From Candidatus Bathyarchaeota archaeon (GTDB lineage Archaea; Thermoproteota; Bathyarchaeia; 40CM-2-53-6; RBG-13-38-9), in NCBI GenBank assembly GCA_963807605.1, contig CAWECG010000001.1, positions 512,001 to 576,000 on the forward strand: a stretch of 64,000 nucleotides of DNA, written 5' to 3'. The notes under the pieces were generated by a model. That model worked only from the letters and a program-made list of their open reading frames with translations, ran no database searches and was not told the origin of the DNA. The translations under genes were made by a program, and so were the position numbers. Positions 6,300 through 62,822 of the stretch are shown here, piece after piece (position 1 is the first letter of the stretch; each line of letters begins with the position of its first letter).

Positions 6300-6376
6300 C
6301 GCGCGCGCGTTCATGCATCGAAAATACAGCCGAATGTTACCTGACGAGCTATCATGATCACTCCTGTAAGCTAGCG

Positions 6377-6482
6377 GCGAGCGTAGCGAGCCGGTACTAA
6401 AAGAAAGAGAGGGTTTGGGAGATTCTTCTCCCAAATTGAGGGGGGAAGAGATTGTGTTTGTGCTCACCAAGGGGCACACAAC
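6377..6482 (-). repeat. TGGTGAG-box repeat, alpha arm (copy a); inverted partner of 8621-8788
   Basis: GCGAGCGTAGCGAGCC..AGAGAGGGTTTGGGAGATTCTTCTCCCAA..TGTGCTCACCAAGGGGCACACA matches the reverse complement of 8621-8788. Confidence 0.85.
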
Positions 6483-6516
6483 TGTAATGGCTAGCTAAGG
6501 TTAAGGACGTTCGTAA

Positions 6517-7062
6517 CTATGGCAGTCCTGGCTGACTCGGTGGTAAGGCGAATTTTATGAATGGAAAGCCTGTAGCCACATGACAGTTATTGCATCCTTC
6601 TATTCCATTGTTGTATGCTGTCTCGAACTGATTCCAATCCTTCGCGTCTATAGCCTTGTCCAGAGGGTCGAGGTAGGCACTTTCGAAAGCCTTGAGTAAA
6701 GGCGCTCTCCCCGGCCTCGTAGTCTCCCCCACCTCCTGTATCTCCCTAGCTTCTGTCAACTGGTATTTTGCAAGATCCCAATTACCAGCCTTAGCTGCAT
6801 AGTAGATTTCATAATATCTCTGGCCGTACTCGATCATTACAGTGCCCAACCCAGGCTGAAGTTCAGCAATCTGGCCCAATGTCAGATTACCATGCGAAGT
6901 TTTCAACGTAACGTTTTCAGCTCCACTGTAGGGTAGCTGCGAAACTTGAGCAGCTCGAAAGTTCAAGACCAAAGATGTGGTTGCAACTCCGAGAGCCACA
7001 AACGCAATGATTATTGCAACAGCAATACTACGTTGCATAATAGATTGATTTTTCAATGGCAA
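6517..7062 (-). CDS. Membrane-anchored monoheme c-type cytochrome-like protein
   Basis: N-terminal hydrophobic helix, helical body, C-terminal CNNCH heme motif. Confidence 0.6.
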   Translation of the reverse strand: MPLKNQSIMQRSIAVAIIIAFVALGVATTSLVLNFRAAQVSQLPYSGAENVTLKTSHGNLTLGQIAELQPGLGTVMIEYGQRYYEIYYAAKAGNWDLAKYQLTEAREIQEVGETTRPGRAPLLKAFESAYLDPLDKAIDAKDWNQFETAYNNGIEGCNNCHVATGFPFIKFALPPSQPGLP

Positions 7063-7167
7063 ATTTAAGCTTGGTGTGCACTTAACACAGCGTGTGCGCT
7101 AGAAACCATAAACTATCAAACTTTCAACAATTACAGCCATACATTATGTTTGTTGCCTGTGTGTTCT

Positions 7168-7316
7168 GCGAGCGTGGCGAGCAGTCATCATTGGTGGGTT
7201 GTGTGGCCTTATCTGGTGAGCACACACCACACAGCGAAAGCAACCCTCACGGACTTAACAGGACCATGGCTTGATGTATGTGTGGGTCTACTGGTGCGGG
7301 CACTGTAATTGAACCG
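7168..7316 (+). repeat. Two degenerate TGGTGAG-box repeats (copies b, c)
   Basis: GCGAGCGTGGCGAGC (7168), TGTGTGG..CTGGTGAGCACACAC (7200-7227), TGTGTGGGTCTACTGGTGCGGGCACTGTAATTGAACCG (7279-7316). Confidence 0.7.
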
Positions 7317-7367
7317 AATGACGGAAAGCATATTACGAGCACAGGTGTAGGAGGAGTAAGATGTGTC

Positions 7368-7655
7368 ATGAAATTCCTACTACGATTGCATATGCCAACA
7401 GAACACGGAAACAAAATGCTACAAGACCCCAACTTTCCAAAGAAACTAGAAGGCGTCCTCAACCAGATCAAACCTGAGGCAGTATACTTCACCCCAATCG
7501 AAGGCGAACGGGGCATCTACATGATAGTCAACCTGCCCAGCGCCGACATGATCGCAACAATAACCGAACCACTCTGGATGACCTTCAACTGCAAACTAGA
7601 TATTCAACCAGTCATGGAGCTAAAGGACCTACAACTAGGACTGCAAAAGAAGTAA
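7368..7655 (+). CDS. Small conserved hypothetical protein (GYD/DUF3303-like dimeric alpha-beta barrel)
   Basis: GGAGG upstream of ATG 7368; KPEAVYF..GERG pattern; followed by a hairpin and T-tract. Confidence 0.6.
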   Translation: MKFLLRLHMPTEHGNKMLQDPNFPKKLEGVLNQIKPEAVYFTPIEGERGIYMIVNLPSADMIATITEPLWMTFNCKLDIQPVMELKDLQLGLQKK

Positions 7656-7719
7656 ACTTACAGTGGGCTGTGCCCCACTCTCCCCTTTTTCCTTCATCAT
7701 TATTACAAAGACGTCTGTG

Positions 7720-7797
7720 ATTTGAACCGCCGTTTCAGGCGTTTTTCGTGTGTGTGCTCACCAAGGGACACACACAACCTGGTCTAACGGTTCAAAT
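7720..7797. repeat. 78-bp MITE-like unit (copy d) with 10-bp terminal inverted repeats and internal GTGTGTGT/ACACACAC hairpin
   Basis: ATTTGAACCG...GTGTGTGTGCTCACCAAGGGACACACAC...CGGTTCAAAT. Confidence 0.8.
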
Positions 7798-7872
7798 TCT
7801 AAACGCCCTCACCATCTGTTGCACATGTTTTTTTTAAGGAAGTTGCTTGTCCCTATTCTAGGGAAGTCTGCA

Positions 7873-8553
7873 ATGGAACTTGATTTGGATTCATGGGAAC
7901 AACGAGTCGCGAATCCAAAGGCGTTGGGTGATGCAGGGAAGACTCTGTGGAAGAAAATACAACCTGTTCTCAACGACGTTTTGGATGAGATAAAAAAGAA
8001 CGGGAGAATTGAAACAATTTACGTAAAAGCTGAGATGGACAGACTCAGTGGCCCAATCAAAATGCTTGAAGAAATAACCGCAACTTACAACACGGTAATC
8101 CATATCTTTGAGAGACCGCAGGAAGAGCGGTTGCGATTCTTCCAGGCAATCCAACCATTCGGTTTCGAAGAAGCTAGTGTGACCCACATGCATCTAACGT
8201 TGGCGGTAGCGATCACTGTTCTTTCAACAGAACTCTTCAAGCTAGTCCTGCTATTTCATATGAAAGATGTAAGCCCTGATGTCTCAAAATTCAATATCAC
8301 AATGCAAAGTTCTGCTCCCAAAACTTGGCCGCTGCTCAAGCTTTTCGTTGACAATGATTTTCGCAACGCCTTAGCGCACGGTACGTACGCTATTGTCAAC
8401 AAGAAGATTGTCCTCTACAGGGATACAACGCTGATTCCATTTGAGGAAATGGAGCTTCACGAGTTCATGATGAGGAGCAAAGATCAGAATGTGCTGTTTC
8501 ACTGCCTCTTCCATGTCTTAGCGGCTAAGAAAAGATTGGGCTTCTTCACTTGA
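7873..8553 (+). CDS. Hypothetical helical protein with HEPN-like RxxxxH motif
   Basis: 226-aa ORF; FRNALAHG near the C-terminus. Confidence 0.55.
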   Translation: MELDLDSWEQRVANPKALGDAGKTLWKKIQPVLNDVLDEIKKNGRIETIYVKAEMDRLSGPIKMLEEITATYNTVIHIFERPQEERLRFFQAIQPFGFEEASVTHMHLTLAVAITVLSTELFKLVLLFHMKDVSPDVSKFNITMQSSAPKTWPLLKLFVDNDFRNALAHGTYAIVNKKIVLYRDTTLIPFEEMELHEFMMRSKDQNVLFHCLFHVLAAKKRLGFFT

Positions 8554-8596
8554 TCAGTTCGATTAACCAGACTTAGATCCGAAGAATGTGACTTCT

Positions 8597-8788
<192 letters not shown>

Positions 8789-8860
8789 GAGAGATGCACA
8801 CACAACGACGCGCGCGCTAAAGATCTTTAGACATCAAGTAACAGAAAGGTTGTCTTGCGA

Positions 8861-9250
8861 TTATGTTACTTTGATTGATTTTCGTCCTTCCCAGAGACCG
8901 TGTAGGTTGCAGTATTCCACTGCGTAGATCGTGCCACCTTTGTCGAGTTTCAGGTTCAGTCTGATATCTGGTTCACTGTAGACGGGCACAAGGTTCACTG
9001 CCGTTAGGAGAACTGGATTGAATGATCTGGTCTCTTCGTGGAGGTATATCTCAATTCTCCTTATCGAGTGTTCTACTGTGTTGGGGTGGGGACCGACGGT
9101 GATTCGAACTTCGAATGGTTTTCCAGCTGTGATTGTGTCCGGGGCGGTTATTTTGGGGGTGTGTGACTCGACTTTGCTGATTGCTTCACCTGCCGCGGTC
9201 TCAGGCGTGTATATCATTTTACCAAACGCATCCATCTTGTCCTCACTCAT
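8861..9250 (-). CDS. Class II superoxide reductase-like (SORL/desulfoferrodoxin Fe-binding domain) protein
   Basis: ESHTP, HPNTVEHSI and YCNLHGLW motifs. Confidence 0.8.
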   Translation of the reverse strand: MSEDKMDAFGKMIYTPETAAGEAISKVESHTPKITAPDTITAGKPFEVRITVGPHPNTVEHSIRRIEIYLHEETRSFNPVLLTAVNLVPVYSEPDIRLNLKLDKGGTIYAVEYCNLHGLWEGRKSIKVT

Positions 9251-9409
9251 CTCCTATATTTAGTGTCAATCATCTTATGTAAACCTAGCGTGGACTGGCT
9301 AGTGCGCGCTTTCAGCTTTCATTTAGTTCATTTAGACGTACTTTGATACTAAGGCGAGTATGCCTCTGCATTCAATAATTGGGAAGATCCTCTCCTCCAC
9401 ATCAGGGGG

Positions 9410-9706
9410 ATGTCTCCTCTCTCAGAAATCGATTTGGATCTAGTTGACTGGAAGATACTGAAGATAGTTGAGAACGATAGCTCAATCACTGACACAGCAA
9501 TCGCAGGAAAGGCCCGCCTAGATAGAGGCCCTGTATTGGGCAGACTCAAGACTCTTGAAACTCACGGATACCTGAGGCTTCAGTGGATAACAAATGCTGG
9601 TTTGAGAATTTGTGGGGCCTATCTAACGACCAAAGGAATCGAACTATTGTATAAAAGAGATAGGGATTCAGAAAAGACTCGCTTGGAAAGATCTCGTCTA
9701 GACTAA
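9410..9706 (+). CDS. Winged-helix (AsnC/Lrp- or MarR-like HTH) transcription regulator
   Basis: LDLVDWKILKIV..IA...RLKTLETHGYL..LTTKG pattern. Confidence 0.6.
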   Translation: MSPLSEIDLDLVDWKILKIVENDSSITDTAIAGKARLDRGPVLGRLKTLETHGYLRLQWITNAGLRICGAYLTTKGIELLYKRDRDSEKTRLERSRLD

Positions 9707-9765
9707 ATCATGTTCTTGGTGCTCTCTTCTGATCTATCTAGATCAGGGAAAGTGAGAGCATCCAG

Positions 9766-9805
9766 AATTGAACCGTTAGGTATTGGTGTGTGTGCTCACC
9801 AGCTA
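9766..9805 (-). repeat. TGGTGAG-box repeat, beta arm (copy f)
   Basis: Reverse complement reads TAGCTGGTGAGCACACACACCAATACCTAACGGTTCAATT, nearly identical to 56324-56361. Confidence 0.85.
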
Positions 9806-9895
9806 TGGCCAAGACCGAATCGCTGCACCGAAGTATCACACTCAAATACTCATCATTTGATAGGTCTCAATACAATCTAAACGTAGTGATGCTTT

Positions 9896-10312
9896 GTGAT
9901 AGAAAATGTGAAGCCTGAAATCATAGAGGCTATGCTTGACGCCATGCCAGTTGAGATATCGTTTGTTGATGAGAATGACCAAGTGAGATACTTCAACAAG
10001 AATGGCAACAGAATCTTTCCAAGACCTAGAAGCATAGTAGGTAAGAAAGTTCAGCAATGTCATCCTGGAAAAAGCTTACACATCGTTGAGAAGATACTTC
10101 AGGATTTTAGAAACAAGAGCAGGAAGAGTGCACCTTTCTGGATAGACCTTAAGGGAAGAAAGATACTGATCAGGTACTTTCCAGTTTGGGATAAGGAAGG
10201 AAACTACAAAGGTTGCTTAGAGGTGTCTGAAGATATCACCGACGTGCAGAAGCTGACAGGTGAGAAGATACTTCTGGACGAAGAAACCACTGAAGCTTCC
10301 AGCAAGACCTGA
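9896..10312 (+). CDS. Stand-alone PAS domain protein (PAS_10/DUF438 C-terminal-like)
   Basis: LDAMPVEISFVDENDQVRYFN..IFPRP..VGKKVQQCHP motif. Confidence 0.8.
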   Translation: MIENVKPEIIEAMLDAMPVEISFVDENDQVRYFNKNGNRIFPRPRSIVGKKVQQCHPGKSLHIVEKILQDFRNKSRKSAPFWIDLKGRKILIRYFPVWDKEGNYKGCLEVSEDITDVQKLTGEKILLDEETTEASSKT

Positions 10313-10330
10313 AGCAGTGATAAATGTCAC

Positions 10331-10437
10331 ATGTGTGTGTGGGTCCCTTGGTGAGCACACACACACACACACAACAAAAAAAAATCAACGCCTAACGGTT
10401 CAAATTACAGCGCTCTCACCAAGGGATACACACACAT
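10331..10437. repeat. Full symmetric unit of the TGGTGAG family: box-beta arm-core-gamma arm-inverted box (copies g, h)
   Basis: ATGTGTGTGTGGGTCCCTTGGTGAG(CA)n..GCCTAACGGTTCAAATTACAGCGCTCTCACCAAGGGATACACACACAT. Confidence 0.9.
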
Positions 10438-11577
10438 TACCCACTCGACTGAATGCATGAGAAAAGAATACCCTGCAGTTCTTGCACTTTTAGCATCAGG
10501 TTTGCTGTTTCCATTCTTAAAGGATTCTCTCATTTTCTCGATCTCAACGCTCACTTGAGCTGAAAATATTTCTAGGTTTAATTCCATCAATCCATTGACT
10601 TTGCGAACCTCAGCCTCGTACTCCGAGAACTGTGTGTCAAGTTCCATGCTTCGTATCAGGAAGTCAGCTATATCCTTCTTAGTTTCGTATCCCTCATAAG
10701 TTCTTGTCCAGTTGCTCAAGAGATCGTATTTCAAAGGACGATATTCCGGAGAAGTCAGCTCGCTTACACCAAAGAATCTCTTAAAATTCATCTCTAGAGG
10801 CTCATACAGTTCCTTATTAAGATCCTTTTGAATCTCTCCTACTCTTTTTAAAATATAGTCAGGTTCGATATCATCCCATCTTTTCAAACAAGATTGAAAA
10901 TTACCGACCAACTCCTCGTCGATTACTCCTCCATCCAAATTCGGAAAGTTCTTCTTCTCTTTCATAACTATTCGACCTATCCTCTCTCGTATTGTTTGGC
11001 GTGTCCGAATATCGATTCTGCCGATGGGCATTCCTGGTTTCAGTGTGGAGCAGAAATCTGAAAATCGTTTCTTGTTTTGCTGATCTGCTTGACATAACAC
11101 GTCCTTTATTCGATCTGGCTTCACAGGTTTGAAATCAAAGTTCTTCTTCCAGTCGCAAAATTTCAAAGATGAGTTAACCTCGACTATCAAGCACTCTTTA
11201 TCTCTAATTGGAACGTACGTCGTTTTTTCTAATTGTTTGCCATCAATCTTGAGGGAATAATCGTGCATTTTGAAAAAGGGTCTGAACTCCTTTGAGCAAT
11301 TAAACTCTATATTAGGCCTGAAGGCGCCAGTACGAGGACCATGATTGAGGTATACAAGTCTAGTTGGGGTAAACCCAAATCTGTCTGGAATGAAGTGGTT
11401 GAAGTAATCTTGGGGAATTCTGTCCAGTACAAATTCTGGTTTCTCACAGATCTTTATGTCGGGACCCCTAAGCCTCTGACTGAGCTCAAAGAAAGCGATG
11501 ATCACCGTAAATGCCGTAAAGATAGCGATAATGGCATTCGAGTATTGATTCAAGATATCAAGGAGAGTTTGGACCAC
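10405..11577 (-). CDS. Hypothetical membrane-anchored protein; likely +1 indel near 10520, probable true stop ~10437 abutting the repeat
   Basis: N-terminal TM helix, 390-aa ORF; an alternative-frame tail (ESLRMETANLMLKVQELQGILFSCIQSSG*) ends at the repeat boundary. Confidence 0.6.
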   Translation of the reverse strand: MVQTLLDILNQYSNAIIAIFTAFTVIIAFFELSQRLRGPDIKICEKPEFVLDRIPQDYFNHFIPDRFGFTPTRLVYLNHGPRTGAFRPNIEFNCSKEFRPFFKMHDYSLKIDGKQLEKTTYVPIRDKECLIVEVNSSLKFCDWKKNFDFKPVKPDRIKDVLCQADQQNKKRFSDFCSTLKPGMPIGRIDIRTRQTIRERIGRIVMKEKKNFPNLDGGVIDEELVGNFQSCLKRWDDIEPDYILKRVGEIQKDLNKELYEPLEMNFKRFFGVSELTSPEYRPLKYDLLSNWTRTYEGYETKKDIADFLIRSMELDTQFSEYEAEVRKVNGLMELNLEIFSAQVSVEIEKMRESFKNGNSKPDAKSARTAGYSFLMHSVEWVMCVYPLVRAL

Positions 11578-11800
11578 GGTTTTTCTCCGTCTTCACAAGT
11601 TTTGTGCCCAGATGTGTTCCGAGGCCCTTGATTATGTTGTTGCAGATGGGACATCGGGAACCTTTGTAGAAATAGTGAGCCGCGCCGACGGCTAACCCCC
11701 GTAGACCATCTACAGCACCGCCCAGAACTAGATCTGAGGTGCCTTTCTTCGGTTCAACCCATCTTTGGCAATATGGACAGTATTCCAATGTTGGGAACAT
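11558..11800 (-). CDS. Small CxxC...CxxC (LITAF-like zinc ribbon) membrane-associated protein
   Basis: CPYC..hydrophobic Gly-rich stretch..CPIC. Confidence 0.55.
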   Translation of the reverse strand: MFPTLEYCPYCQRWVEPKKGTSDLVLGGAVDGLRGLAVGAAHYFYKGSRCPICNNIIKGLGTHLGTKLVKTEKNRGPNSP

Positions 11801-11891
11801 CTCCGCTAGGGTTCTTCAAATATTGACATATTCGGACTAAGGGATAATCAGCATTTTGTTGATGGTCCGGGCGCAAACGCAGATTCATATT

Positions 11892-12578
11892 CTACGCCTT
11901 CTCCGCCTGTTCCATGAACTTCTTAGCCAGTTCCTTGTCTCCCTGATCAAGCGCTTTCATTGCGCTTCGCAGAAGTTCATCTTTAGTCAATGGAACTGTT
12001 TCAGATTTGGCCTTGCCTAAAGGTTTAAACTCAAGAATTCGACCTTTCAATTTCTGAATGAACTCACTGGAATCCTCATCCCGCAAAAGTAACTCTAATC
12101 TTTGAGACCGTGTTACTAAGATCAGTCTTGTCTTTTGCTGGACATCTTTCTCAACCTCTACATCATCAATGTCTTTGTAGCCTATTCGCCAAGACTGGTC
12201 ACCGAAAAGGGAAGATCCACATTCAAACCATATTGCATCTCTGCCTAGACTAGCAGACCCATGAAAGACTCCTCTTTCGTGAGGACGCTCTGCCACAATT
12301 GTCATATCTCTCTTCTCCTTCTCCTTGCCTGACGTACCTGTAGTACTGATTACATCTTTGGTCAGTGACGGTCTCAAAGTTGGCTGAGCTTTTGGACGCG
12401 CAGCGGCAGCATATATGAGGGCACCTAACAATCCTGTGAAGAAGGTCAGAGCTATCCATGCTTCTCTATTCTCCTTATCTTCACTGCCCTTAATGACGGC
12501 TATCAGGGGTAGAAGCCAGAGAATAAAAGCAATGGCGCCCCAAAGAAGTGTGATTCCAGAATAATTGTATAAGGGCAA
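11892..12578 (-). CDS. Membrane protein with PLDc_N-like N-terminal hairpin, PH-like middle and conserved C-terminal tail (paralog 1)
   Basis: WIALTFFTGLLGALIY; tail PLTKDELLRSAMKALDQGDKELAKKFMEQAE shared with 12759-13421. Confidence 0.7.
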   Translation of the reverse strand: MPLYNYSGITLLWGAIAFILWLLPLIAVIKGSEDKENREAWIALTFFTGLLGALIYAAAARPKAQPTLRPSLTKDVISTTGTSGKEKEKRDMTIVAERPHERGVFHGSASLGRDAIWFECGSSLFGDQSWRIGYKDIDDVEVEKDVQQKTRLILVTRSQRLELLLRDEDSSEFIQKLKGRILEFKPLGKAKSETVPLTKDELLRSAMKALDQGDKELAKKFMEQAEKA

Positions 12579-12610
12579 TTGTTCTCCAATAACAGTCTAC
12601 CACGAAAGCC

Positions 12611-12626
12611 GCAGATTTAAGACTTG
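12611..12626 (-). promoter_or_regulatory. Candidate BRE/TATA promoter (CAAGTCTTAAATCTGC)
   Basis: Identical 16-mer at 42050-42065; both copies lie ~30 bp upstream of a minus-strand TTG start. Confidence 0.5.
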
Positions 12627-12758
12627 GTCACTGAAGTTCGCTCTTACCTCCGCTATTATGTCTCCCTGAAAAAGCCGATGTCTATTTGTGATTGAGGCTT
12701 TCGAGTCGAAGATAGCGCGCGCGGGAAGTTAATGACTTGATAGAGTCTAGGCTTTCAA

Positions 12759-13421
12759 CTAGCTAATTGACTCTGCCTGGTCCATGAATCTCTTTGCGAG
12801 CTCTTTGTCTCCTTGGTCTAGTGCTTTCATGGCGCTTCGTATGAGTTCCTCTTTGGTTAACGGTGTTGTTTCACGCTCGTTCATCTCTTGAATTCGAGGC
12901 AGTGCTTTTATTTCCATAATTGTGGACCGCCACTCTTCTGAGTTAAGGCCCAATTCACCCCAAACAGAAAACCCGCCAGCCCAATCATATGTGTAGGCAG
13001 CCCCGTTCTGAAGTTGGATAATCATCCTATTTCCCCCTTTTTTCATTTCGACATTAGAGATTGAGCTGACAGGGTAGGTATGGTGTCCGCTGGTACCTTT
13101 CATTGGATTGAATGCCATTAGGGTGCCGTCAAGAGACAGCCTGCCCAATACATTGGATTCTTGGTTCCTGCATATTGACTTGAGCAAGCGTGCGCTAGAA
13201 GGTGATGGAGTACCCGTAGGTGATGGTGCTACCTCAGCCTTCTGGGGGCGAGACGCGGCCCAATATATGAGAGCGCCTAACAATCCTGTGAAGAAAGTCA
13301 GGGCGATCCATGCCCCTCGATTCTCCGCATCTCTACTGTCCACGATGACATCTACGAGAGGAAGAAGCCAGAGAAAAACCGAACCTATAACACCAAGCAC
13401 AATCATGATGCCATAATCCAT
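12759..13421 (-). CDS. Membrane protein with PLDc_N-like N-terminus and conserved tail (paralog 2)
   Basis: Same N- and C-terminal blocks as 11892-12578, unrelated middle. Confidence 0.7.
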   Translation of the reverse strand: MDYGIMIVLGVIGSVFLWLLPLVDVIVDSRDAENRGAWIALTFFTGLLGALIYWAASRPQKAEVAPSPTGTPSPSSARLLKSICRNQESNVLGRLSLDGTLMAFNPMKGTSGHHTYPVSSISNVEMKKGGNRMIIQLQNGAAYTYDWAGGFSVWGELGLNSEEWRSTIMEIKALPRIQEMNERETTPLTKEELIRSAMKALDQGDKELAKRFMDQAESIS

Positions 13422-13536
13422 TCACAACCCCCTGCCTGGTCGGAGATCCAGTGGTCGTGCGCGCGCGCGTCCGAAGATCAATGCCCACCAATTCAGAATA
13501 TTCCTCTCTTGAGCCCGTCGTCGGTCGTCGTTTTTG

Positions 13537-13577
13537 GTGTGTGTGTGTCCTTTGGTGAGAGCACTCTAATTTGAACC
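13537..13577 (+). repeat. TGGTGAG-box repeat, gamma arm (copy i); inverted partner of 10397-10435
   Basis: 35/39 identity to the reverse complement of GGTTCAAATTACAGCGCTCTCACCAAGGGATACACACAC. Confidence 0.85.
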
Positions 13578-13827
13578 CATGAAGGTCTCCACCACAGGAA
13601 GTGAGTGCCAGCGCGCGCTTGCCTTGATAACTCGTCTGACATCCGCGGGACCGCAGAATAGTCCTCTCTCCAAGGAACGGCGCTGACAAATATTACGCAT
13701 ACGCGTAAATACAGCCAGGTGTTCCACTCACCATAATAGATCGCTTTTCTTTAGGTTTCTAGAGTGTGTATTTGCTGGGTTTTGAAGCGTACGTCTCGCA
13801 ATTGATGCCGGTGGAGTTCTGTGGAAG

Positions 13828-15198
13828 CTAGGAAATCCCAGCGCCTCTGTTGATCCTTTTCCAGTAGTAGCGGTAGGGAAGACCAGTCTTCTTTCGGATA
13901 GGAGTCCTCTCTATCTCAATTAACCACTTGGACTCCAGTCTCTGAGCCTCTCCAAATGCTTCCTCTGTAATCTGGGCAAGGATAGCCTTCTTGTCGCTCG
14001 AGAGTTTGTCGGCATCGATGTTTGATCGAGCTTGGAAGACGCGGGTCAAATATTCTATTTCGAAATGTCGTTGGTCTTGTCGTATAATCTTTATCCTAGA
14101 TTGGTAGTCTTCTAGAATCTTCCGATGGAGACGTTCGTGTAACCACCAGAGACTCTTGTCGTCCCAAACTCCTCTAGGTGTTGATCCTAAGTCAGGTAAC
14201 CCATTCTCGATAAAGACAGGTTTGAATAGTGAGGTGCAAGGCGCCGCCGTTCCCGTCAACCAATGAGTCTGAAGCTCAGGGAGGAGATGGCCAACGTATG
14301 AGGAGGTTGTTTGTGTAGGAACAAAAACTGGTCTTGCGTGAATACAGATCGATTCCATACTGCCTTTTGAGGGATCCCATGCCTCCTCCTTTGATGGATC
14401 GTTCAGATTGTGACTGCGAAGAATCCGCATCATCAATAGGACGTCGATTTTCCCCTTATGTTCTGTGAGCTCTCTTGTTGTTAACGTATGTCTTGCGAAT
14501 CCTTTTCCTCCCCATGTTCTCCTGTCAAGTATTCCTGCGGTGAAACACTTTCTGAAGCTAAAATCTGATTTGGATGAACAGTAACCTTTTTTCACAGCGT
14601 GTGAAATCAGGTCAGGATGAATTCTGTCGTAATTTGAACCTATTGTGAGGCAATTGGATATCGTTCGGATCTCCTTGACTCTCTCAGCAATCCAGAATCG
14701 GTCAGCAGTCTCAAGAGCCCAGGCTTCGTTGAGATCAGCTATTAAGAAGCTGTTGTGATACTTCATCTTCTTATCTTCAAAGCCGCAAATTCCGCCCTGA
14801 CCATACCGCTCAACCAGTGAAATGATTGTCTCAAGAGCCTCCGTGGCGGTTTTGGTTCTTTCCAACGCCACACGCATCATATCCATCCCCAGAAGACCGC
14901 TCTCCCTTTCAGGTTCCTTGGTGAATACAGCTTCGTTTCCCATTGCTACACCATATTCATTTGCACCCATCTCACAACCGAACATCCAGTGGGGAGAGCT
15001 GAGAATTACTGCATACGTCTCCTCAACCTGCGGTATCTCAAGATAAGTGCACTTTAGCTTCTCAGTGTCCGGATCGTGTTTCTGTCGGGGGAAGAAGAGT
15101 AAGGTATGGCCTTCATTTGGTTCTCTGTCGGAGTTCTTTGCAAGAATCACCGAACCGTCATCGGTACTATTCTTGAGTGCCACTAGGGTGTCACACAT
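13828..15198 (-). CDS. Peptidase C69/secernin-family dipeptidase (Ntn hydrolase)
   Basis: N-terminal MCDT, AKNSDREPNE, GCEMGANEYGV, YHNSFLIAD. Confidence 0.9.
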   Translation of the reverse strand: MCDTLVALKNSTDDGSVILAKNSDREPNEGHTLLFFPRQKHDPDTEKLKCTYLEIPQVEETYAVILSSPHWMFGCEMGANEYGVAMGNEAVFTKEPERESGLLGMDMMRVALERTKTATEALETIISLVERYGQGGICGFEDKKMKYHNSFLIADLNEAWALETADRFWIAERVKEIRTISNCLTIGSNYDRIHPDLISHAVKKGYCSSKSDFSFRKCFTAGILDRRTWGGKGFARHTLTTRELTEHKGKIDVLLMMRILRSHNLNDPSKEEAWDPSKGSMESICIHARPVFVPTQTTSSYVGHLLPELQTHWLTGTAAPCTSLFKPVFIENGLPDLGSTPRGVWDDKSLWWLHERLHRKILEDYQSRIKIIRQDQRHFEIEYLTRVFQARSNIDADKLSSDKKAILAQITEEAFGEAQRLESKWLIEIERTPIRKKTGLPYRYYWKRINRGAGIS

Positions 15199-15370
15199 GG
15201 AGATATCAAATCCCGATCATAGGCAGAAGACAAAGGATTCTATGCGCGCGCTAGTAGGTTTTCTGGCGAGCCTCTTTAATCCAGAAGCTGGTTTGCTGAG
15301 AGAGTATGGAACCCATCCAGTAGCGCGCGCCCGGGAACCACGAGGAGTCTGTCGTGTATTTTCATCGCGC

Positions 15371-17920
15371 TCAAAGTCCTTCTCGCTTGTAGAAGAGTCG
15401 CTTGGTTTGCTCCGCGCCCAGAACGTATAGTCCAACAATAATCGCAGTGAAGAGAAGGAAAGTAAGCGAGATAGGAACAAATCCAAACAACGTTCCTAGG
15501 GCCGTAAAGGGTAGAAGCACAGTTGCAATTACCACGCATAATGTCGCAAACAGAAGATATTTGCTAGGCTTACTTCTGAAGAACGATTGTTGAGTGCGAA
15601 TTACTAACACAATCAGAGTGGCAGAGGCCACTGATTCAATGAACCAACCTGTTCTGAACTGATCCGTTGTTGCATGCAAAATGAAGAGAAGTACACCGAA
15701 TGTTAGGTAGTCGAAGACCGAACTAAGGAGACCGAAAGTCATCATGAAGTCCCGGATGAATTTTACGTTCCAGCGTCTGGGTTTCTGTACCATGCCACTG
15801 TCAACGCTATCTGTGGGTATGGTCATTTCAGGGAAGTCTGTCATGAGATTTGTAAGCAGAACTTGCGTGGGCAGCAAGGGTAGGAAGGATAAGAAGAGTG
15901 AAGCTCCGGCCATGCTGAACATGTTTCCGAAATTGGCACTCGCAGCCATGAACACGTACTTGAGAGTGTTAGCGAAAGTCTTTCGACCATCTTGCACACC
16001 CTGTACTAGAACACCCAAGTCTTTCTCAAGTAATACGATGTCAGCAGCCTCCTTAGCTACATCTACTGCAGTGTTCACCGAGATTCCGACGTCTGCAGTA
16101 TGGAGTGCTGAGGCGTCATTGATTCCATCTCCGATGAAGCCTACAACATATCCTGCTTTCTTGAACGCTAAGATAATTCGCTCTTTATGGTTGGGATCGA
16201 CTTCGGCGAACACGTCAGTATCTTTGACTCGTTGAAGGAGCGCTTCGTCACTCATAAGATGGATTTCAGGGCCTGTTAGAACACGTGAACTGGTTAGTCC
16301 TACCTGTGTGCTCAGAGATGCCGCGACGAATCTGTTGTCTCCCGTTATGATCTTTAACGCAATTCCAAGGTTCTGTAGGTTTTGTAGAACTGTCTTAATC
16401 ATCGGCTTAGGCGGATCAAACAATAGCAAGAAACCCAAGAAAATCATCTGAGTTTCTTGATCCTTGTCGATGCGGTCAGCAGGAACGTTCTTGTATGCCA
16501 CGCCAAGCAGCCGGAAACCTTGACCGCTTAAGTCTTCGAAGCGTTGCTGGATTTTCTCACGAACATCTGCAATTTGAACGACCCCATTCGGGGTCTCTGC
16601 TTGGGCGCAGGCGTCGAGTACGTTTGGTACCGCGCCCTTTGTCGTCATGATATGCACGTTATCCTTTGACACTAGGATACTGAGCCTCTTCCGCACAAAA
16701 TCGTATGGGACTTCATCAATTTTCTTGTAAGAAGTGAGGTCGAAGGTACTCTTTGCTCGAATTGCTTCGTCTATGGGGTTTGCAAAGCCGCTCTCAAAAT
16801 TGGCGTTCAGACATGCGTATAGGAGAACCTTTTCGCTAGTGTTGCCTTCGATATCAATGGCGGATTGGACCTGTACTTGTCCTTCGGTTAGGGTTCCCGT
16901 CTTGTCCGAACAGAGAAGGTTCATGCTGCCAAAGTTTTCAATTGAGACAAGTCGTTTCACGATAACTTTCTGCTTTGCCATTTCCTTCGCGCCGTGCGCG
17001 AGATTTACGGTTACTATGGCGGGTAGTAGTTGTGGTGTTAAACCAACTGCGAGTGCCACTGAGAAGAGAAAGGATGCAAGGATTGGTCGTCCCAAGTAGG
17101 CGTTTACAGCGAAGATCATGATTGCCATGATTAGAGTGATTTCCATAAGGAGGTAGCCGAATTGCCTGACGCCACGCTCGAATCCAGTCTCTGGCGGTTT
17201 AAGCGCAAGACTTTCAGAGATTTTTCCGAATTCAGTTTTCTTCCCGGTTGTTACGACAAGAGCTTTGCCAGTACCGCTGACAACATGAGTTCCCATGAAC
17301 AGAGTGTTTGAGCGAGCGCTCAAAGGTGCGTCAGGCGTAAGGATCCCGACGGATTTTTCTTCGGGGTAAGTCTCACCCGTAAGCGTCGCTTCATCAACGA
17401 AAAGATCCCTAACTTCGATGAGTGCGCAGTCACCGGGAACCATGTTCCCTGCGTTCAGTATCACAATATCTCCTGGTACGATTTGCTCTAGAGGAATTTG
17501 ACTTGGTTCTCCGTTGCGTAGCGCAGTCGTATTGATCTGTACGATTGAAAGTAACTTCTTCACGGCATCGCTTGCGCCGCGCTCCTGCCAGAACCCGAGT
17601 ATACCGCTGACGAATACGATGACCAAGATAATTGCTGCACTTGCTCGATCCTGCAGAAAGATGGAAAGTATAGCTGCAACGAGCAAGATGAGTACGAGAG
17701 GGCTTCTGAATTGATTAAGAAGAAGTGTGATGACGTCAGTTTTCTTCTTTTCCTTTAACAGATTGTATCCATATAACGAGAGCCGTCGTTGAACTTCATC
17801 ATTAGTCAAACCTTCAGGGGTCGTCTGAAGCTGTTCAAATAGCTCTGCGCTGGGAATGCTCCAGAAAGGTTTCTCATCAGAGCTGATTGTACCCCTCTCC
17901 CAAAATTTGTACCATAACAA
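15371..17920 (-). CDS. mgtA: Magnesium-translocating P-type ATPase (P3B)
   Basis: LTGE, AVGLTPQLLP, CSDKTGTLT, GDGIND, SANFGNMFS, FRTGWFIES. Confidence 0.9.
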   Translation of the reverse strand: MLWYKFWERGTISSDEKPFWSIPSAELFEQLQTTPEGLTNDEVQRRLSLYGYNLLKEKKKTDVITLLLNQFRSPLVLILLVAAILSIFLQDRASAAIILVIVFVSGILGFWQERGASDAVKKLLSIVQINTTALRNGEPSQIPLEQIVPGDIVILNAGNMVPGDCALIEVRDLFVDEATLTGETYPEEKSVGILTPDAPLSARSNTLFMGTHVVSGTGKALVVTTGKKTEFGKISESLALKPPETGFERGVRQFGYLLMEITLIMAIMIFAVNAYLGRPILASFLFSVALAVGLTPQLLPAIVTVNLAHGAKEMAKQKVIVKRLVSIENFGSMNLLCSDKTGTLTEGQVQVQSAIDIEGNTSEKVLLYACLNANFESGFANPIDEAIRAKSTFDLTSYKKIDEVPYDFVRKRLSILVSKDNVHIMTTKGAVPNVLDACAQAETPNGVVQIADVREKIQQRFEDLSGQGFRLLGVAYKNVPADRIDKDQETQMIFLGFLLLFDPPKPMIKTVLQNLQNLGIALKIITGDNRFVAASLSTQVGLTSSRVLTGPEIHLMSDEALLQRVKDTDVFAEVDPNHKERIILAFKKAGYVVGFIGDGINDASALHTADVGISVNTAVDVAKEAADIVLLEKDLGVLVQGVQDGRKTFANTLKYVFMAASANFGNMFSMAGASLFLSFLPLLPTQVLLTNLMTDFPEMTIPTDSVDSGMVQKPRRWNVKFIRDFMMTFGLLSSVFDYLTFGVLLFILHATTDQFRTGWFIESVASATLIVLVIRTQQSFFRSKPSKYLLFATLCVVIATVLLPFTALGTLFGFVPISLTFLLFTAIIVGLYVLGAEQTKRLFYKREGL

Positions 17921-18171
17921 TACATCGGCTGGCTATAAGTACACAACGCGGAAGCACTGGAAGGGGCACTTCCATGCAGCCTCTCATGAGATCAGCGCGC
18001 GCTTAGATAAACACCTTGGGCCTGTACATTGTCCCGCACGAGGATTTTGGTGACTATTGATGCTTTCTTCTGGCATGCTTAACTTGGTCATGCTTCAAAG
18101 ATGGGGCAGGGGATTCTGACCCCAATTTACCCGTAGACTCAGCCTTGGGGACACGGATAAGAGGGTCCGTG

Positions 18172-18558
18172 TTAGCCGACTATCTGAGTTATTTCCTTGA
18201 TAATCTCGTTTTCAACGTGGCGGGTCCACAGCATTTCAGGAACATCGATTCCAAGGAAGAGAACGGACAGTAACAATGTTTCGACGGCTGCGACTGCAAG
18301 ATTTTGTATCAATTTTCCGATTCCAACATGCACTGTGAAATCGTTCGGTTGCCCTGAAAGGGTTATTGTGAACGCCCGATCGGCGGTGATAATGTCTCGC
18401 AGTATCCCAGCCTTTTGAGCCTGAATCACTTGTCCTAACGGAGCCGTGGTGGACTGGACCTTGTATCCTTCAACCTGTAGTTGTTTAACTATTTGTTGCG
18501 ATAGTTGGGTCAGATCCTTATTCTTTCCTTGAAAACGCAATACTTTCTCTGAAACCAT
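18172..18558 (-). CDS. Conserved hypothetical protein
   Basis: 128-aa ORF with natural composition, ATG start and upstream AT-rich promoter-like sequence. Confidence 0.6.
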   Translation of the reverse strand: MVSEKVLRFQGKNKDLTQLSQQIVKQLQVEGYKVQSTTAPLGQVIQAQKAGILRDIITADRAFTITLSGQPNDFTVHVGIGKLIQNLAVAAVETLLLSVLFLGIDVPEMLWTRHVENEIIKEITQIVG

Positions 18559-18648
18559 TTAAAATTCACCACAAATATAACTACGATACCGTCTAATTAA
18601 CGTTTGACGTGGCGAGCCTGAAGGTCAATTCCATCGTACCCTTGGGAT

Positions 18649-18837: not shown

Positions 18838-18904
18838 AGCGCGCGCTTCGTTCCAGTTCTTCTTTATCGTTGCTTTTCTTTTCCGTCATGAGTTGAATTT
18901 TGGC

Positions 18905-20389: not shown

Positions 20390-20466
20390 GCGCGCTATTT
20401 GAAGCCGTTCAGATGAAAACACTGCTTTAATAGACGTGACGAATGAAATAATAGAGTGGAAATAAA

Positions 20467-50311: not shown

Positions 50312-50585
50312 ACTATGCACACGCAGACCATGCAACATGCTTTGAAGTGTTGCGCGTGCGTTTAACCGTCAGATTATGTTATTGTGTGGATAGCGCGCGC
50401 TTTAGAGTATCAGAATTTGAACTATGATTTGTGTGCGTTCACAACCATAGCGACGACAACATACCCTGGTGCTAACATGCGCACTACTCATTGTCAACTC
50501 AATCAGGAAAAGCCCAAATCGATATTAGTTACTGACGTTGTAATAGTCGCTGCTAAGCCACTGGTACAGATAGTATGAACGACTT

Positions 50586-50691
50586 GGGCCGGTAGTTCAG
50601 CTTGGTATACATATTGGCCAATGAACGTCCGGTTCGCATGAACCTCTGAGAAACCGGAAGGTCGCGGGTTCAAATCCCGCCCGGTCCACCA
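50586..50691 (+). tRNA. tRNA-Ala(CGC) with two introns (D-loop ~15 nt; 37/38, 14 nt), encoded CCA
   Basis: Acceptor GGGCCGG/CCGGTCC with G3:U70, anticodon stem TCCGG/CCGGA with TT-CGC-A, T arm GCGGG-TTCAAAT-CCCGC. Confidence 0.9.
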
Positions 50692-50782: not shown

Positions 50783-50956
50783 ATACGAATCACGGCCGCT
50801 GTTTAGATTAGCGTGCCCTCTCTATCAGATTCTTTCTCTGACCAGCGTAAGTTTAAGACCCCAGTCCTTATTTGAGATTGTTTCAGAACCCAGTACGCGC
50901 GCGTCGTAGAAGAATCGGATTTTGCTCAAGTTGAATAGGCCTCTCGCCTTGGTTAG

Positions 50957-55367: not shown

Positions 55368-55691
55368 ATGGCGCGCGCGTCTCGCTACAAGAGAATCAAG
55401 GTCACAAAGAAGATTCAAGAAATACGTGTCGGAATCGCTGAGCAGCAGCCCCCAGAAAGTGAAGCGGGCCCCCACATTTTTCGACATAATCATCCTTGTA
55501 GAGTCTTGTTTCGAGTTTTGGCGAGGATGAAATGTGGTCTTTGAAGAGTTCGAACAGGTTTGTGTACTTAGCTAACCGGTCCAAAATGCGCTGTTTGATG
55601 TTCTGGTTGTCCATGATTCTACTACTGCCTCCATTCAGCCATAGTTCACGTTCCGAAACTGGGTTAAAGTTTCACGATCAAATATGATATT

Positions 55692-57020: not shown

Positions 57021-57073
57021 CCTGCTTAGCGCGCGCTAATAATCTTATAAACGCAATGCAACCATAGCATATT

Positions 57074-57332: not shown

Positions 57333-57721
57333 TTACTCGAGGAGCCGCCAGACAAGTGCGGCGATGAGTCCTCCAATGATAGGGGCGACCCAGAATAACC
57401 AGAGCTGGCTCAAGGCGACACTCCCAACTACGACTGCTGGACCCAGGCTTCTAGCCGGATTCACAGACGTGCCCGTTACCGGAATCCCGACGAGGTGGAT
57501 GAGGACAAGACTCAGTCCAATGGAAATACCCGCGAAACCCTTGGGAGCTCTCTCCCCAGTCGATCCATAGATAACAAGCAAAAAGATGAATGTCAAAATG
57601 ACTTCCGTGGCGAATCCGGAAATCATAGAGAATCCGCCTGGCGAGGCCTGATCGTATCCGTTCTGACCTAACCCATTAACAGCGAGACTGTATCCGGGAT
57701 TTCCAACGGCAACGCCATAAA
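57333..57721 (-). pseudogene. aqpZ: C-terminal half of aquaporin Z-like channel
   Basis: LY.VA.G..G..NGY..SPGG.S...TEV..GTSVNPARS.GPA..WVAPIIGG; only the second NPA is present; starts at (GC)6 57722-57733. Confidence 0.88.
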
Positions 57722-57787
57722 GCGCGCGCGCGCTAACCTAATGGTACACAAAAAAATAAGAGAGGCCAGAAGCGTGCGCTAATTGTG

Positions 57788-59731: not shown

Positions 59732-60026
59732 CTACCTGTTCGTGGGATGCCTTACCGCGCTGCTGGTTCCGGTTTGACACTGGTTCCGTGCTAATGAACA
59801 CAGGGGGTCCCAGAAAGACAAGACTGCGGGCACCGTATCAAGGATTTTCAGGAGTTCTGGAGGCAGATACTCTTTCCTCACAATAACCTCGTAGAAATAT
59901 TCGTCGAACCATTCATCCATCAAGTACATGTATCCTTGATCCCCCTATCGCGGGTCCCCAGCCGTTTTCAACTCGCCATTTCCTTGGCTTGCCATGCTCA
60001 TCGAGGTCAACCCTCGTAATCACCAT
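59732..60026 (-). pseudogene. pepC: C-terminal fragment of aminopeptidase C / bleomycin hydrolase (C1B)
   Basis: AMVIT.VDLDE.GKP.KWRVEN.WG..GY..DEWFDEY.YE..V.K.YLP..WDP..SLA; starts at GC run 60027-60035; one indel in a G-run. Confidence 0.8.
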
Positions 60027-60181
60027 CGCGCGCGCTTTCCTGTGTAGTTTTCGATTGGGTACGTTTTCCTGTCGGTGCTATTGGCTTAGGTGTTTAGGCG
60101 CTAATTGCTTAAGCCCTTTCGAGTTGTGCGCCCTCAGCCGTGCTACTTGCGCTTGCTGAGTTAAACAACCAAACCTCTATA

Positions 60182-60676
60182 CTATTTTTTTTCATTCAAT
60201 AGGATTTCGACAGTCCACTTTGCAGTTTTCCCCACAACATTTTGGCACTTGTCTCCCTTTGCCTTGTTGAATTCTTCATGTTCCTTGGGGTCCCAGAGGT
60301 TGAAAGACCTTCCAATAATTTTCGTCTGGACATCTTTGCAGATGGCGCTTCCAAACTCTTCTATGAACCGGTCATGGAGCTTCTTGCCCAGTACCATGCC
60401 CTTCTCTCTTTCTCCAAGATTCGAGAAATCTGCCCTGCCATACCTTTGGCTTATCGCTGCCACTCCGCCTGACAAGGCGCCACATGTGCCATCTCCTGCA
60501 CGGACCAATCCTCCAGCTAGACCGTCCATCGTCTTAAAGATCTCACGGCTTCGACCTCCCAAGACTTCGCTCACAGCTGCAAAGGCACATTGTGAGCAAC
60601 CTCCATGAGCCTTGGTATAGTTGAAACCCAAATCATAAGCACGTTTCATCAAGTCTTCTTTGCTTGATTTCACCAA
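60182..60676 (-). CDS. C_GCAxxG_C_C family redox protein
   Basis: GCSQ, TCGALSGG, F.EEFGS.IC, KC. Confidence 0.85.
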   Translation of the reverse strand: MVKSSKEDLMKRAYDLGFNYTKAHGGCSQCAFAAVSEVLGGRSREIFKTMDGLAGGLVRAGDGTCGALSGGVAAISQRYGRADFSNLGEREKGMVLGKKLHDRFIEEFGSAICKDVQTKIIGRSFNLWDPKEHEEFNKAKGDKCQNVVGKTAKWTVEILLNEKK

Positions 60677-61041
60677 ATATGTCACCAGACCACTTTGCAT
60701 TCGCACTGTTTGGCCAACGGTAGCATTAGCAATCTCTAAAAACATTTTGGATAGTGTGTACGCGTGGATACCTGCGGAATGTGAAGGTCAAGGATTTGAC
60801 TCTTGGGCGCCTGACGCGCACGTCATTTATATGGGTAATCAGTCAGAGGATAGAGCGCGGGCTATCACCGCATCGACGATAGAACAAACCTAAGCCAGAT
60901 AATCGAGTTTCGTCGTCGCTCACGAAAAGAGTTGCACACACAATTTCGTTACACTAGGAAAAAGAACCGCAGGTCTGGGATGCGGATCCAAGACATACGC
61001 GCGCGAAACGTTAAGTAAGCATCAGGAGCACGTTTCTAGAG

Positions 61042-61227
61042 GTGATGAGCTTAGTGATTACTTTGAAATGTCCTATTGGCGAGTGTATCTTTGAGATAGA
61101 TGCTCACACCTTTGAAGAAGCAATTAGGAAGGCTAGAGATCACGCGAAGGCACAACACAAAATGACTGATCTCCCTCCACACATTATAGAAAAAATTGCA
61201 CAAGCGTTTAAGCCCACAATATGGTGA
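61042..61227 (+). CDS. DUF1059 small metal-binding protein (paralog of 57788-57955)
   Basis: LKCP..C.F...A.T.EE.....HA...H.M. Confidence 0.7.
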   Translation: MMSLVITLKCPIGECIFEIDAHTFEEAIRKARDHAKAQHKMTDLPPHIIEKIAQAFKPTIW

Positions 61228-61671
61228 GCTCGCGCACAACTAACACTACGGACGCGCCCCTCGGATTCCACTGAGGGTCAACAAAGACAAATCATGTTTT
61301 TGCCGAGTTGCGATGTCCCAAGAATGACGAATTCACCTAATTATCCAATTGCGTACGGGCGGCTCACTATAATCTGCTTGTTGAACACCTGCGAAATTGT
61401 TTGCCCGCATTACGTGGGTTACAATTGTGGCTACACTCTGTGCAGATTAATCCTGATTGGTCTCGCCAGAGGATATCACGCCGAGACGATGTTCTCCAAA
61501 AGGACCGCACACACAAATCGTAGGAGCCAGCCCGCAGGATATAAGCGGAGTTTAAGCTTCTTTCAACACCAGAGGTCATCTTCAGAAAACTTAATGATAG
61601 CAAGGAAAGATGAGAGAATTTCAAACATGAATATAATCAACCAATCGTTTTGTTATCCCTATTAAGATCGT

Positions 61672-62571
61672 TTAGAACAAGATGTGGTAAACTCCTACCA
61701 ATATCAAAGCTGCACCGATTAATCTAGTCAAGTATGTGCGAATGGAATGGTTTTCGCCCAAGACCTTCGGATTTATTCTGGACACCAAAACACCGATGAT
61801 AACCGTGAAAAGCCCCTGCGTGGCAACGAAGGCTTCGGTTAATGATACTGAAAATTTCACAGCGAAAAACATTGCAGCAAGGCTAATGTAAAGCAGAGTG
61901 ATTTCCAGAATGGCAGACGGTATTGCTTGTTTCCATTTCTCCTTGAAACTTACAATTTCATTTTTCTTCATCACGAAAGGCATGAAAATCAGAAGCAGAG
62001 GAATCTGCATAATGTGAAACCAGCTAAGATAATTGATGTAATCCATTCCCTGTAGTACAGGTTTGCTTGCAATGCCCATGAAAGCGAATATGAGACAGGT
62101 TGCGAAGAATAGACCAAGAGACTTGCTCTTGATCAGATTCTTGAAAGTTATACCCTCATTCCAAGAGGTCAACATGGCGCCGAAAACAATCAACAAAATC
62201 CAGCCAATTATTTGGAAACCGTAAAACTCATGTAACAAGATGAAACTCAACGGAATTACGAATATTGGCCTTGTACTCAAAACAGGATTGGCAGTTGTAA
62301 TATCGCCAATGCTTAGACCATACACGAAAATCAATCCTCCAGTGAAAGCCGCTGATGATGCGATTGTTGTAAGAACCAAGGAATTTACGGATGGAAATAC
62401 TATCGGAGATATTGACCAAGAGACGACTGGGAACACCGCAAGGCTTAGTGCAGTGTAAAGATAGAACCAAGAGACGGCCTGCATTTTGTTTTCTATTGCA
62501 TACTTGCTTACAAGGTTACGGAGAGCAAAGAACAGGCCTGCTACGATAGCCGCAATCATGAAAAATTCCAT
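61672..62571 (-). CDS. EamA/DMT-family transporter
   Basis: 10 TM segments in two repeats, L.E....G..LI..G motifs. Confidence 0.8.
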   Translation of the reverse strand: MEFFMIAAIVAGLFFALRNLVSKYAIENKMQAVSWFYLYTALSLAVFPVVSWSISPIVFPSVNSLVLTTIASSAAFTGGLIFVYGLSIGDITTANPVLSTRPIFVIPLSFILLHEFYGFQIIGWILLIVFGAMLTSWNEGITFKNLIKSKSLGLFFATCLIFAFMGIASKPVLQGMDYINYLSWFHIMQIPLLLIFMPFVMKKNEIVSFKEKWKQAIPSAILEITLLYISLAAMFFAVKFSVSLTEAFVATQGLFTVIIGVLVSRINPKVLGENHSIRTYLTRLIGAALILVGVYHILF

Positions 62572-62822
62572 TGAACCACTACAAGACATTTTGGAGGTTG
62601 GGCAAGACACGGGCCTTTTCTACAAGGCTTCGGGTCATCTATTAAAATGTTTAACATTTTGATTTCAGATTTGGGCGCGAGGTCATGAAAAGGACTCCTA
62701 TTGATAGTGCGTGGCGAGCTTCCTCCGCGCGCGCGTAAGATAACGATACAATTCGCCATCTGCACACGGAGTCGAAGCAAATTTAGTAGGCCCTTTATAG
62801 GCGAACTTGCCAACTCAAAGTC

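Follow-up and report, generated by a model that had tools for sequence, protein, structure and literature searches.

Bathyarchaeia are abundant and uncultured in soil and sediment, and how their flexible genomes are constructed is poorly known. A 64,000-nucleotide window from one soil member (G000:C1:512001-576000, genome of 2.65 Mb in five contigs) raises the question of why a very short GC palindrome recurs at the seams of its gene mosaic. An earlier reading of the window (the original prediction) had proposed that about 26 alternating G/C runs of 8-12 bp mark the junctions between gene modules and belong to a candidate genome-shuffling system. The runs were found to form the core of a palindromic unit at whose outer edge homology ends and into whose centre mobile elements insert. 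This unit is tentatively read here as a reusable break-and-join hotspot that also serves as a landing pad for mobile elements.

A run was defined as a maximal alternating G/C stretch and a unit as a run with its conserved A/T flanks. Expected counts were taken from 100 dinucleotide-preserving shuffles for the window and from a third-order Markov model for the genome. Genic and intergenic positions were split with a crude gene model based on codon usage, which covers 78% of the genome. The comparison set comprised 31 relatives (G-numbered genomes); metagenome-assembled genomes (MAGs) often lose repeats. Intergenic alignment to the same-genus genome G001 was unusable, coding DNA of G000 and G001 itself being 72-76% identical, and exact-protein look-ups aimed at near-identical strains returned no record. 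Strains were compared through Logan metagenome contigs (X-numbered) from four independent soil and peat studies, which cover parts of window 6000-25999.

A short palindrome outside genes

Between positions 6300 and 62735 the window holds 26 maximal alternating G/C runs of 8-12 nt, the number predicted, and GCGCGCGC has 28 overlapping matches against a shuffle mean of 0.30 and maximum of 3. The extended palindromes quoted at 24857, 29930 and 57026 are all present as written. A genome-wide octamer count against the Markov model, split into genic and intergenic copies, had been proposed as a check and upheld the enrichment. GCGCGCGC is the top octamer of the genome, with 298 copies (17 times expectation), and 263 of these (∼88%) lie outside open reading frames (ORFs) of the gene model, with 35 inside. 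Maximal runs number 320 genome-wide. A full-text literature search for GCGCGCGC and archaea returned no relevant paper.

The flanks define the unit further. Among 147 exact 8-mers, A precedes the run in 86% and T follows it in 83%; one step farther out T and A are favoured, and past +/-2 there is no conservation. Genome-wide, A(GC)nT occurs 508, 44, 106 and 5 times for n = 2, 3, 4 and 5, and n = 4 with any other flank pair occurs at most 14 times each. Enrichment extends to the opposite phase, with A(CG)4T and A(CG)5T, and runs occur in both phases and at lengths of 8-11 nt, the modal length being 8. Runs and flanks together describe a palindromic unit of 10-12 bp, with the form (T)A + 8-10 alternating G/C + T(A). 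A slippage microsatellite was ruled out by the excess of n = 4 over n = 3 and by the strict A...T flanks. A larger repeat or miniature inverted-repeat transposable element (MITE) surrounding the runs was ruled out by the lack of conservation beyond the two flanking positions and by short inter-run intervals that hold no common sequence.

No run in the window lies within an intact long gene, as had been predicted; where a run does fall within an ORF, the ORF is either chimeric or truncated (6300, 57722) or is short and matches no Pfam family. The run-free stretch described at 30-42.6 kb also stood, the conserved ATP-synthase region having zero runs from 29941 to 46479. Elsewhere in the genome, islands hold up to 24 units per 50 kb and other parts 0-3, the usual spacing being 1-4 kb. 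Unit-bearing spacers are long (median 418 bp vs 165 bp), and units at most 20 bp from a stop codon number 23, vs 3 equally close to a start. Unit-bearing spacers showed no bias towards a divergent, convergent or tandem arrangement, and a promoter or terminator role was rejected on this ground.

The unit is common to five genera of the family. Octamer counts in relatives reach 325 in G001, 227 in G010, 165 in G007, 158 in G004 and 120 in G003; within the family, genus g5 stands apart with 0-1, and counts are low in the order's other families. The A...T-flanked 10-mer has the same spread, with only 0-5 occurrences of the reversed control. In the fragmented MAGs G002, G008 and G010 no more than a few hundred bases separate many units from a contig end, which suggests that assemblies tend to break close to units.

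Homology ends and mobile elements at the unit

Of self-BLAST homology ends, 3.4% lie at most 5 bp from a run, vs 1.1% for random intergenic positions. This threefold excess, together with strain contigs that diverge at runs, bears out the claim that runs mark junctions. In most paralog pairs the run is present in one copy only and the other copy continues without it. For a protein-level test, run flanks were compared by blastx with the organism's own proteome, and a truncation was counted only when homology broke off at the site with at least 30 residues of the matching protein still to come. Truncated homology ends were found at 22 of 320 runs (6.9%) vs 11 of 1500 random intergenic sites (0.7%; Fisher p ∼4e-8, 9-bp tolerance). 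Junction association of solo runs rose with length, from 4.9% for 6-nt runs through 9.6% for 8-nt runs to 17.8% for 9-nt runs, compared with 1.6% for random intergenic 8-mers. It was 13.3% for (GC)n of at least 8 nt, and the remaining low-complexity classes (homopolymers, (CA)n, (TG)n, mixed alternating and other GC-only 8-mers) gave 3-6.5%. Three outcomes had been named as fatal to the prediction, namely junctions unsupported by independent data, relatives syntenic across the runs, and truncation no commoner than at random; all three were tested for, and none of the tests went against the prediction of junctions at runs.

The offset of the homology end was read at 50 junction sides, of which 12 ended one base outside the run (-1) and 9 flush with it (0), together 21/50. 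In a second analysis 35 sides were each oriented with the paralog-homology end on the left. The base beside the run on the replaced side was A in 28 of 35, and the far-side base was T in 27, so that breaks fall just outside A(GC)nT whichever flank was exchanged. The crossover point is therefore the outer edge of the unit, and its A and T are retained whichever flank is replaced. Joints commonly show short microhomology, with overlaps of 1-4 nt commoner than chance.

Four genes of the window were verified as truncated at runs, at 6300, 15330, 57722 and 60027. The 10-nt run at 6300-6309 cuts off a PQQ beta-propeller repeat gene, of which a fragment (6111-6305, minus strand) survives in a chimeric 166-aa ORF with PQQ_2 and Beta-prop_ACSF4 matches at residues 59-123 only. 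At both the DNA and the blastx level, homology to C1:338504-340615 and C3:456549-457409 stops at 6299-6305, and both paralogs run on without a run where the window fragment starts at one. At 57722-57733 a 12-nt unit truncates a MIP/aquaporin gene (57348-57665, minus strand), which retains its C-terminal half, Pfam MIP profile positions 116-222 of 222 only.

The unit at 15323-15330 forms the 3' edge of the module holding mgtA, the gene for a Mg2+ P-type ATPase (15371-17920, minus strand). Neighbourhoods of mgtA were compared on L-numbered contigs, of which those of seven relatives were fetched. After the mgtA stop codon ∼40 bp are common to all seven, and these are the start of an intact PPK2 gene in L029 and L033. 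The window retains 35 nt (15331-15365, minus strand), aligning to the first 35 nt of that gene, followed by the run. Homology to the seven relatives is lost at 15330-15339, and metagenome contig X4 has a loose end at 15330.

At 60027-60035 a unit joins two unrelated segments, each with a run-free paralog elsewhere. One is the C-terminal stub of a C1-like peptidase gene (59789-60026, minus strand; 81% identical to C1:509542-509782), which keeps only the last ∼40 residues (Peptidase_C1_2 positions 398-437 of 438) of a protein intact at C1:509533-511023. On the other side begins an 820-bp copy with a C_GCAxxG_C_C gene (60036-60855; 98.3% identical to C3:577492-578311). The copy corresponds to a run-to-run interval of C3 trimmed by 10 bp on one side and 179 bp on the other. 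Its left joint bears a unit and its right joint (60856-60862) a degenerate one, probably a mutated run. The prediction that at least four recognisable genes lose homology at a run thus stood; its further estimate of 8-9 was not confirmed, most other run-adjoining fragments having no Pfam match. Two genes are full length despite adjoining runs, one for acylphosphatase (downstream of the unit at 22030-22039) and one for 3-hydroxyacyl-CoA dehydrogenase (unit at 55371-55379, 7 bp beyond the stop).

Strain contigs add breaks at single units. X11 record 13 matches the window to 18848 and is then unlike it for 240 nt, beside the unit at 18839-18846, and X4 record 22 matches to 22035, within the unit at 22030-22039, and then differs for 289 nt. 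X1 record 6 has a joint at 24801, joined to 25230, the position being the first of three neighbouring units (24801-24808, 24861-24868 and 24966-24974). X8 record 29 stops at 17991, just short of the unit at 17995-18002, 75 bp upstream of mgtA. A further strain variant, X1 record 3, has window 20860-21453 (594 bp) swapped for 86 other letters; its right break is 33 bp from the unit at 21414-21421 and so is not flush.

Mobile elements of three families have inserted at the centre of units. The first, an IS5-type insertion sequence (IS) of 1137 bp in seven copies (DUF772 + DDE_Tnp_1), has GC half-runs outside its inverted repeats, as it has in G001, G002, G008 and G012. The second, with a transposase 41% identical to that of the first, also has seven copies, and its sites read TA-GCGCGC / IS / GCGCGC-TA in six of seven, the seventh having a variant left flank. 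Its copy in the window (19285-20389, plus strand; transposase match 19379-20368) lies between half-units at 19278-19284 and 20390-20395. The empty-site allele in X1 record 3 has an intact 9-nt run, the occupied site 7+6 nt, and the remaining copies have 6+6 nt, equal to 8 plus 4. The occupied site is thus the empty run plus 4 bp, a GCGC duplication centred in a pre-existing unit; a 4-bp target duplication is ordinary for IS5-type elements. No duplication was found outside the half-runs at any of the seven copies.

The third is a MITE-like element, with a full copy at C5:62525-62654 and ten or more one-ended copies, all with half-run flanks. It is non-coding, with long inverted arms that abut the GC half-runs (partial copies at, for example, C4:3137-3470 and C3:1001395-1001616). 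The inner inverted repeats differ among the three elements. All 29 half-runs beside IS inverted repeats are IS ends, so the units are landing pads and not IS remains. The GC runs at IS ends had suggested IS tips as the source of runs, which was ruled out for family 2 by the empty-site arithmetic and the missing outer duplication. The transposon-footprint option of the original prediction is likewise weakened: the run is a pre-existing target, left intact at the empty site, and the inverted repeats of the elements differ. A tandem duplication with a run at its joint (C5:32945-33000) was dropped as it involves the terminal repeat of the MITE-like element. All seven family 2 copies in G000 have one in-frame TGA in the transposase, which a G001 relative lacks; this could reflect recoding or inactivated copies. 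For archaea, the palindromic target of these IS5-type elements is unusually strict.

One unit can serve more than one event. In one paralog pair the unit is kept and the 22 bp directly beside it are deleted, and in another the units are in both copies and the outer flanks differ. The strain contigs diverging at 18848 and 22035 share the unit and differ beyond it, and at 60027 both flanks have been replaced. The divergent-promoter spacer at 46479-46487 has the unit in both G000 and G001, with G001 synteny breaking after it; the orthologous spacer of G002 has no unit and has kept synteny. Between paralogs of a run, C-to-T type transitions are the only differences (two CpG-type transitions for the unit at 60998-61005), and octamer variants one transition away are 2-3 times commoner than expected. 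This decay and this excess indicate turnover and not purifying selection; units erode through C-to-T change and lack the upkeep expected of functional sites. Octamers of (CA)n/(TG)n are ∼7 times over expectation genome-wide (137/179 intergenic), and C-to-T decay of runs may feed this excess in some copies at least.

Hotspot, scar or signal

As a hotspot, the unit would remain at fixed positions within the variable regions and be repeatedly broken and rejoined there. Breaks may be favoured at its edges by structure (Z-DNA-prone, a very stable GC clamp, A.T flanks) or by a binding protein. Loose fragments with arbitrary ends would then be joined between neighbouring units, giving the gene mosaic, and units could multiply by riding in copied or imported segments. 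This is the leading reading of those considered, and a tentative one.

Several points weigh against it. No enzyme or binding protein came to light, no gene family was enriched beside runs and no nuclease or recombinase was linked to them. Formation of Z-DNA in vivo from just 8-10 bp is doubtful, and no Z-alpha domain was found in a search whose control likewise found nothing. Where fragments with arbitrary ends have been copied, both new joints have a unit and the corresponding points of the donor have none; replacement between old units and an added patch fit this equally well. The mgtA module is shuffled without units in run-poor relatives: mgtA (88-93% protein identity) occurs in at least four different neighbourhoods on relatives' contigs with 0-1 runs per 20 kb, so that shuffling does not need runs. 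In L030-L032 the mgtA-PPK2 stub ends within 2 bp of the window's break with no run. Finally, members of paralog families are non-independent events, and the crude gene model that splits the genome also defines the controls.

Some of the same observations would be expected of a repair scar, that is, a fixed GC patch laid down when broken ends are joined (for example by tailing or templated synthesis, followed by annealing of the self-complementary GC tails). This explanation is possible and is given about half the weight of the hotspot. Fragments from run-free sources carry units at both joints (window 60027/60856, C1:377806/378826 and C3:74515/75024), the second being a copied metallo-beta-lactamase segment, C1:377813-378823, with units at both ends and none in its source. 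At the 12 junctions with offset -1 the A adjoining the run is not templated by the partner, and where paralogs span a run, the run replaces 5-6 bp. At the PPK2 stub the 8-nt run is essentially all that separates the window from L030-L032, and the occurrence of both phases and of 8-11-nt lengths would also suit a patch. A filler of constant sequence and size is, however, unlike any known end-joining product; filler DNA at end joining is of variable sequence, locally templated or untemplated, whereas the joints here are constantly A(GC)nT. The polarity of the 5-6-bp 'replacement' cases is ambiguous, and units predate events both at the IS empty site and where the run was kept beside a deletion. 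Of the enzymes that a scar might call for, Ku is present in G000 but was not found in motif-rich relatives, and PolX gave a sub-threshold match only.

A dedicated site-specific activity that recognises A(GC)nT, cuts at its outer edges and ligates any fragment between neighbouring units is unlikely. It would amount to a cassette-exchange system with a 10-bp socket, common to a Bathyarchaeia family, exploited by IS5-type elements and building the flexible genome. The dedicated genome-shuffling system of the original prediction found no support, with no nuclease or recombinase linked to the runs and mgtA shuffled where runs are few. Across the 31 relatives none of IS5-type transposase, Ku and C5 methyltransferase tracks motif abundance; Ku and C5 methyltransferase were rejected as candidate factors on this ground, and PolX was set aside on its sub-threshold match. 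The Ku homologue of G000 (C1:590767-591306, PF02735, E = 8e-40, 268-aa frame) lies ∼15 kb beyond the window end; among the 31 relatives Ku was otherwise found only in the motif-poor genus g9. Ku is regarded as rare in archaea. C5 methyltransferase (PF00145) was not found in motif-rich relatives, and G000 has a weak fragment only.

Slightly less likely again is an IS by-product, in which transposases create, lengthen or multiply units, for example by excision that keeps the GCGC duplication or through misrepaired breaks after excision. No copy of either IS family or of the MITE-like element lies outside a run, 6+6-4 gives the modal run length of 8, and the excess of A(GC)4T over A(GC)3T is expected from one-step GCGC duplication. 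IS elements have also been reported to take part in break repair with large deletions or duplications and no target duplication (PMC11708052; bioRxiv 10.1101/2024.06.02.596822). Against it, G003, G004, G007 and G010, with 120-227 motifs, yielded no IS5-type transposase, and G012 has nine matches and only seven motifs, although MAGs often drop repeats. Post-excision breaks would also be central, but crossovers lie at the outer edge with A/T kept on the replaced side, and the junction partner sequences are without GCGC.

A functional site under selection (boundary element, terminator, promoter element or other binding site or signal), with the link to junctions secondary, is improbable. The strongly intergenic placement, the frequent position just past stops and the sharing by five genera would suit it. 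Units nevertheless show no spacer-type preference, are absent from the conserved operons of the window and missing from genus g5 of the same family, and include many decayed copies; a sequence-specific protein would not treat both phases alike, and flush homology ends are not expected of a signal. An assembly or library artefact can be dismissed: linker-mediated chimeras would show short palindromes at junctions, but the runs recur in contigs of independent soil and peat studies, with a junction spanned (X1 record 2 crosses the unit at 18839), many independently assembled relatives are enriched, and the units decay by mutation and serve as IS targets.

Among known systems, the unit behaves most like repetitive extragenic palindromic (REP) elements, being extragenic, multicopy and an IS target. 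In bacteria, several IS families specifically target these and the bacterial interspersed mosaic elements (BIMEs), which have also been tied to rearrangements; the likeness extends to hundreds of short intergenic palindromes (PMC1525189). The present unit differs in being a loopless perfect GC palindrome of 10-12 bp and not a REP stem-loop (imperfect, ∼20-40 nt), and homology ends here are flush with it. REP-associated tyrosine transposase (RAYT, a Y1 transposase) mobilises those elements; this genome has four Y1_Tnp matches, and no gene family was enriched beside runs.

The cyanobacterial HIP1 (GCGATCGC) is likewise a hyper-abundant octamer palindrome with a slightly longer consensus, lineage-wide and discussed in connection with recombination; it is common inside genes and tied to DNA methyltransferases (PMC5861425, PMC4390886), whereas 88% of copies are intergenic here and motif-rich genomes yielded no C5 methyltransferase. 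The 'inverted-repeat-replacing' insertion of IS1272 (PMC5678879) and IS insertion into breaks (PMC11708052) similarly place IS in palindromic targets or rearrangement joints. Here the duplication is an ordinary 4 bp in the centre of the palindrome, which is restorable, and most joints are marked by solo units and not by IS.

Z-DNA-forming (CG)n tracts, which act as fragile sites, and the GC clusters of yeast mitochondrial DNA are likewise short alternating or GC-rich elements of non-coding DNA that coincide with end points of deletions and rearrangements. Both are longer or more complex than this unit, and (CA)n tracts are weakly junction-associated in this genome. Integron cassettes also place one- to four-gene modules between repeated palindromic sites in variable DNA. 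Their attC sites, however, are imperfect palindromes of 60-140 bp cut by an integrase, and the incoming fragments here have arbitrary ends, gene stubs included. No integrase or platform was associated with the units, no search having been aimed at IntI.

If a dedicated enzyme exists, the units would represent a new kind of cassette-exchange system; if not, they would be a clear natural example of a tiny structure-prone DNA motif shaping genome architecture. A 10-bp seam palindrome would offer a sequence handle for mapping gene gain, loss and truncation in MAGs, and would help to explain assembly break points and guide the search for a repair or recombination activity.

Modules and remaining units of the window

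Of the module names given in the original prediction, Peptidase_C69, mgtA, ppsA with UPF0047 (yjbQ) and C_GCAxxG_C_C were confirmed; the mannosyltransferase match is weak and the 'GT cluster' was not verified. The Peptidase_C69 gene (13828-15198, Pfam match) lies between a unit 46 bp upstream (15244-15251) and two units downstream (13459-13469 and 13611-13618), which overlap short ORFs without a Pfam family. Two units lie below the ppsA-UPF0047 module (26551-26559 and 26767-26774), and that at 29934-29941, 96 bp upstream of ppsA, is the last before the run-free ATP-synthase region.

Farther to the left, a unit between convergent genes (8809-8817) lies 44 bp beyond a desulfoferrodoxin gene, and that at 12715-12723 is intergenic, as is the unit at 21414-21421. 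On the right, the unit at 57029-57036 is part of a 14-bp extended palindrome, and the series ends with the unit at 62726-62735. Two units (50393-50400 and 50896-50903) flank a tRNA gene of 103 nt (50586-50688; Rfam 50 bits), which ARAGORN missed. This gene probably contains an intron; it is 84-93% conserved in relatives, where it stands at contig ends.

The mgtA module is bracketed by the units at 15323-15330 and 17995-18002, and upstream of the mgtA start codon homology to L027 fades ∼55 bp out. The closest mgtA homologues beyond Bathyarchaeia (∼69% identity) are named Deltaproteobacteria, Thermodesulfobacteriota or Syntrophales, which suggests that the gene may have been acquired by an old transfer from bacteria.

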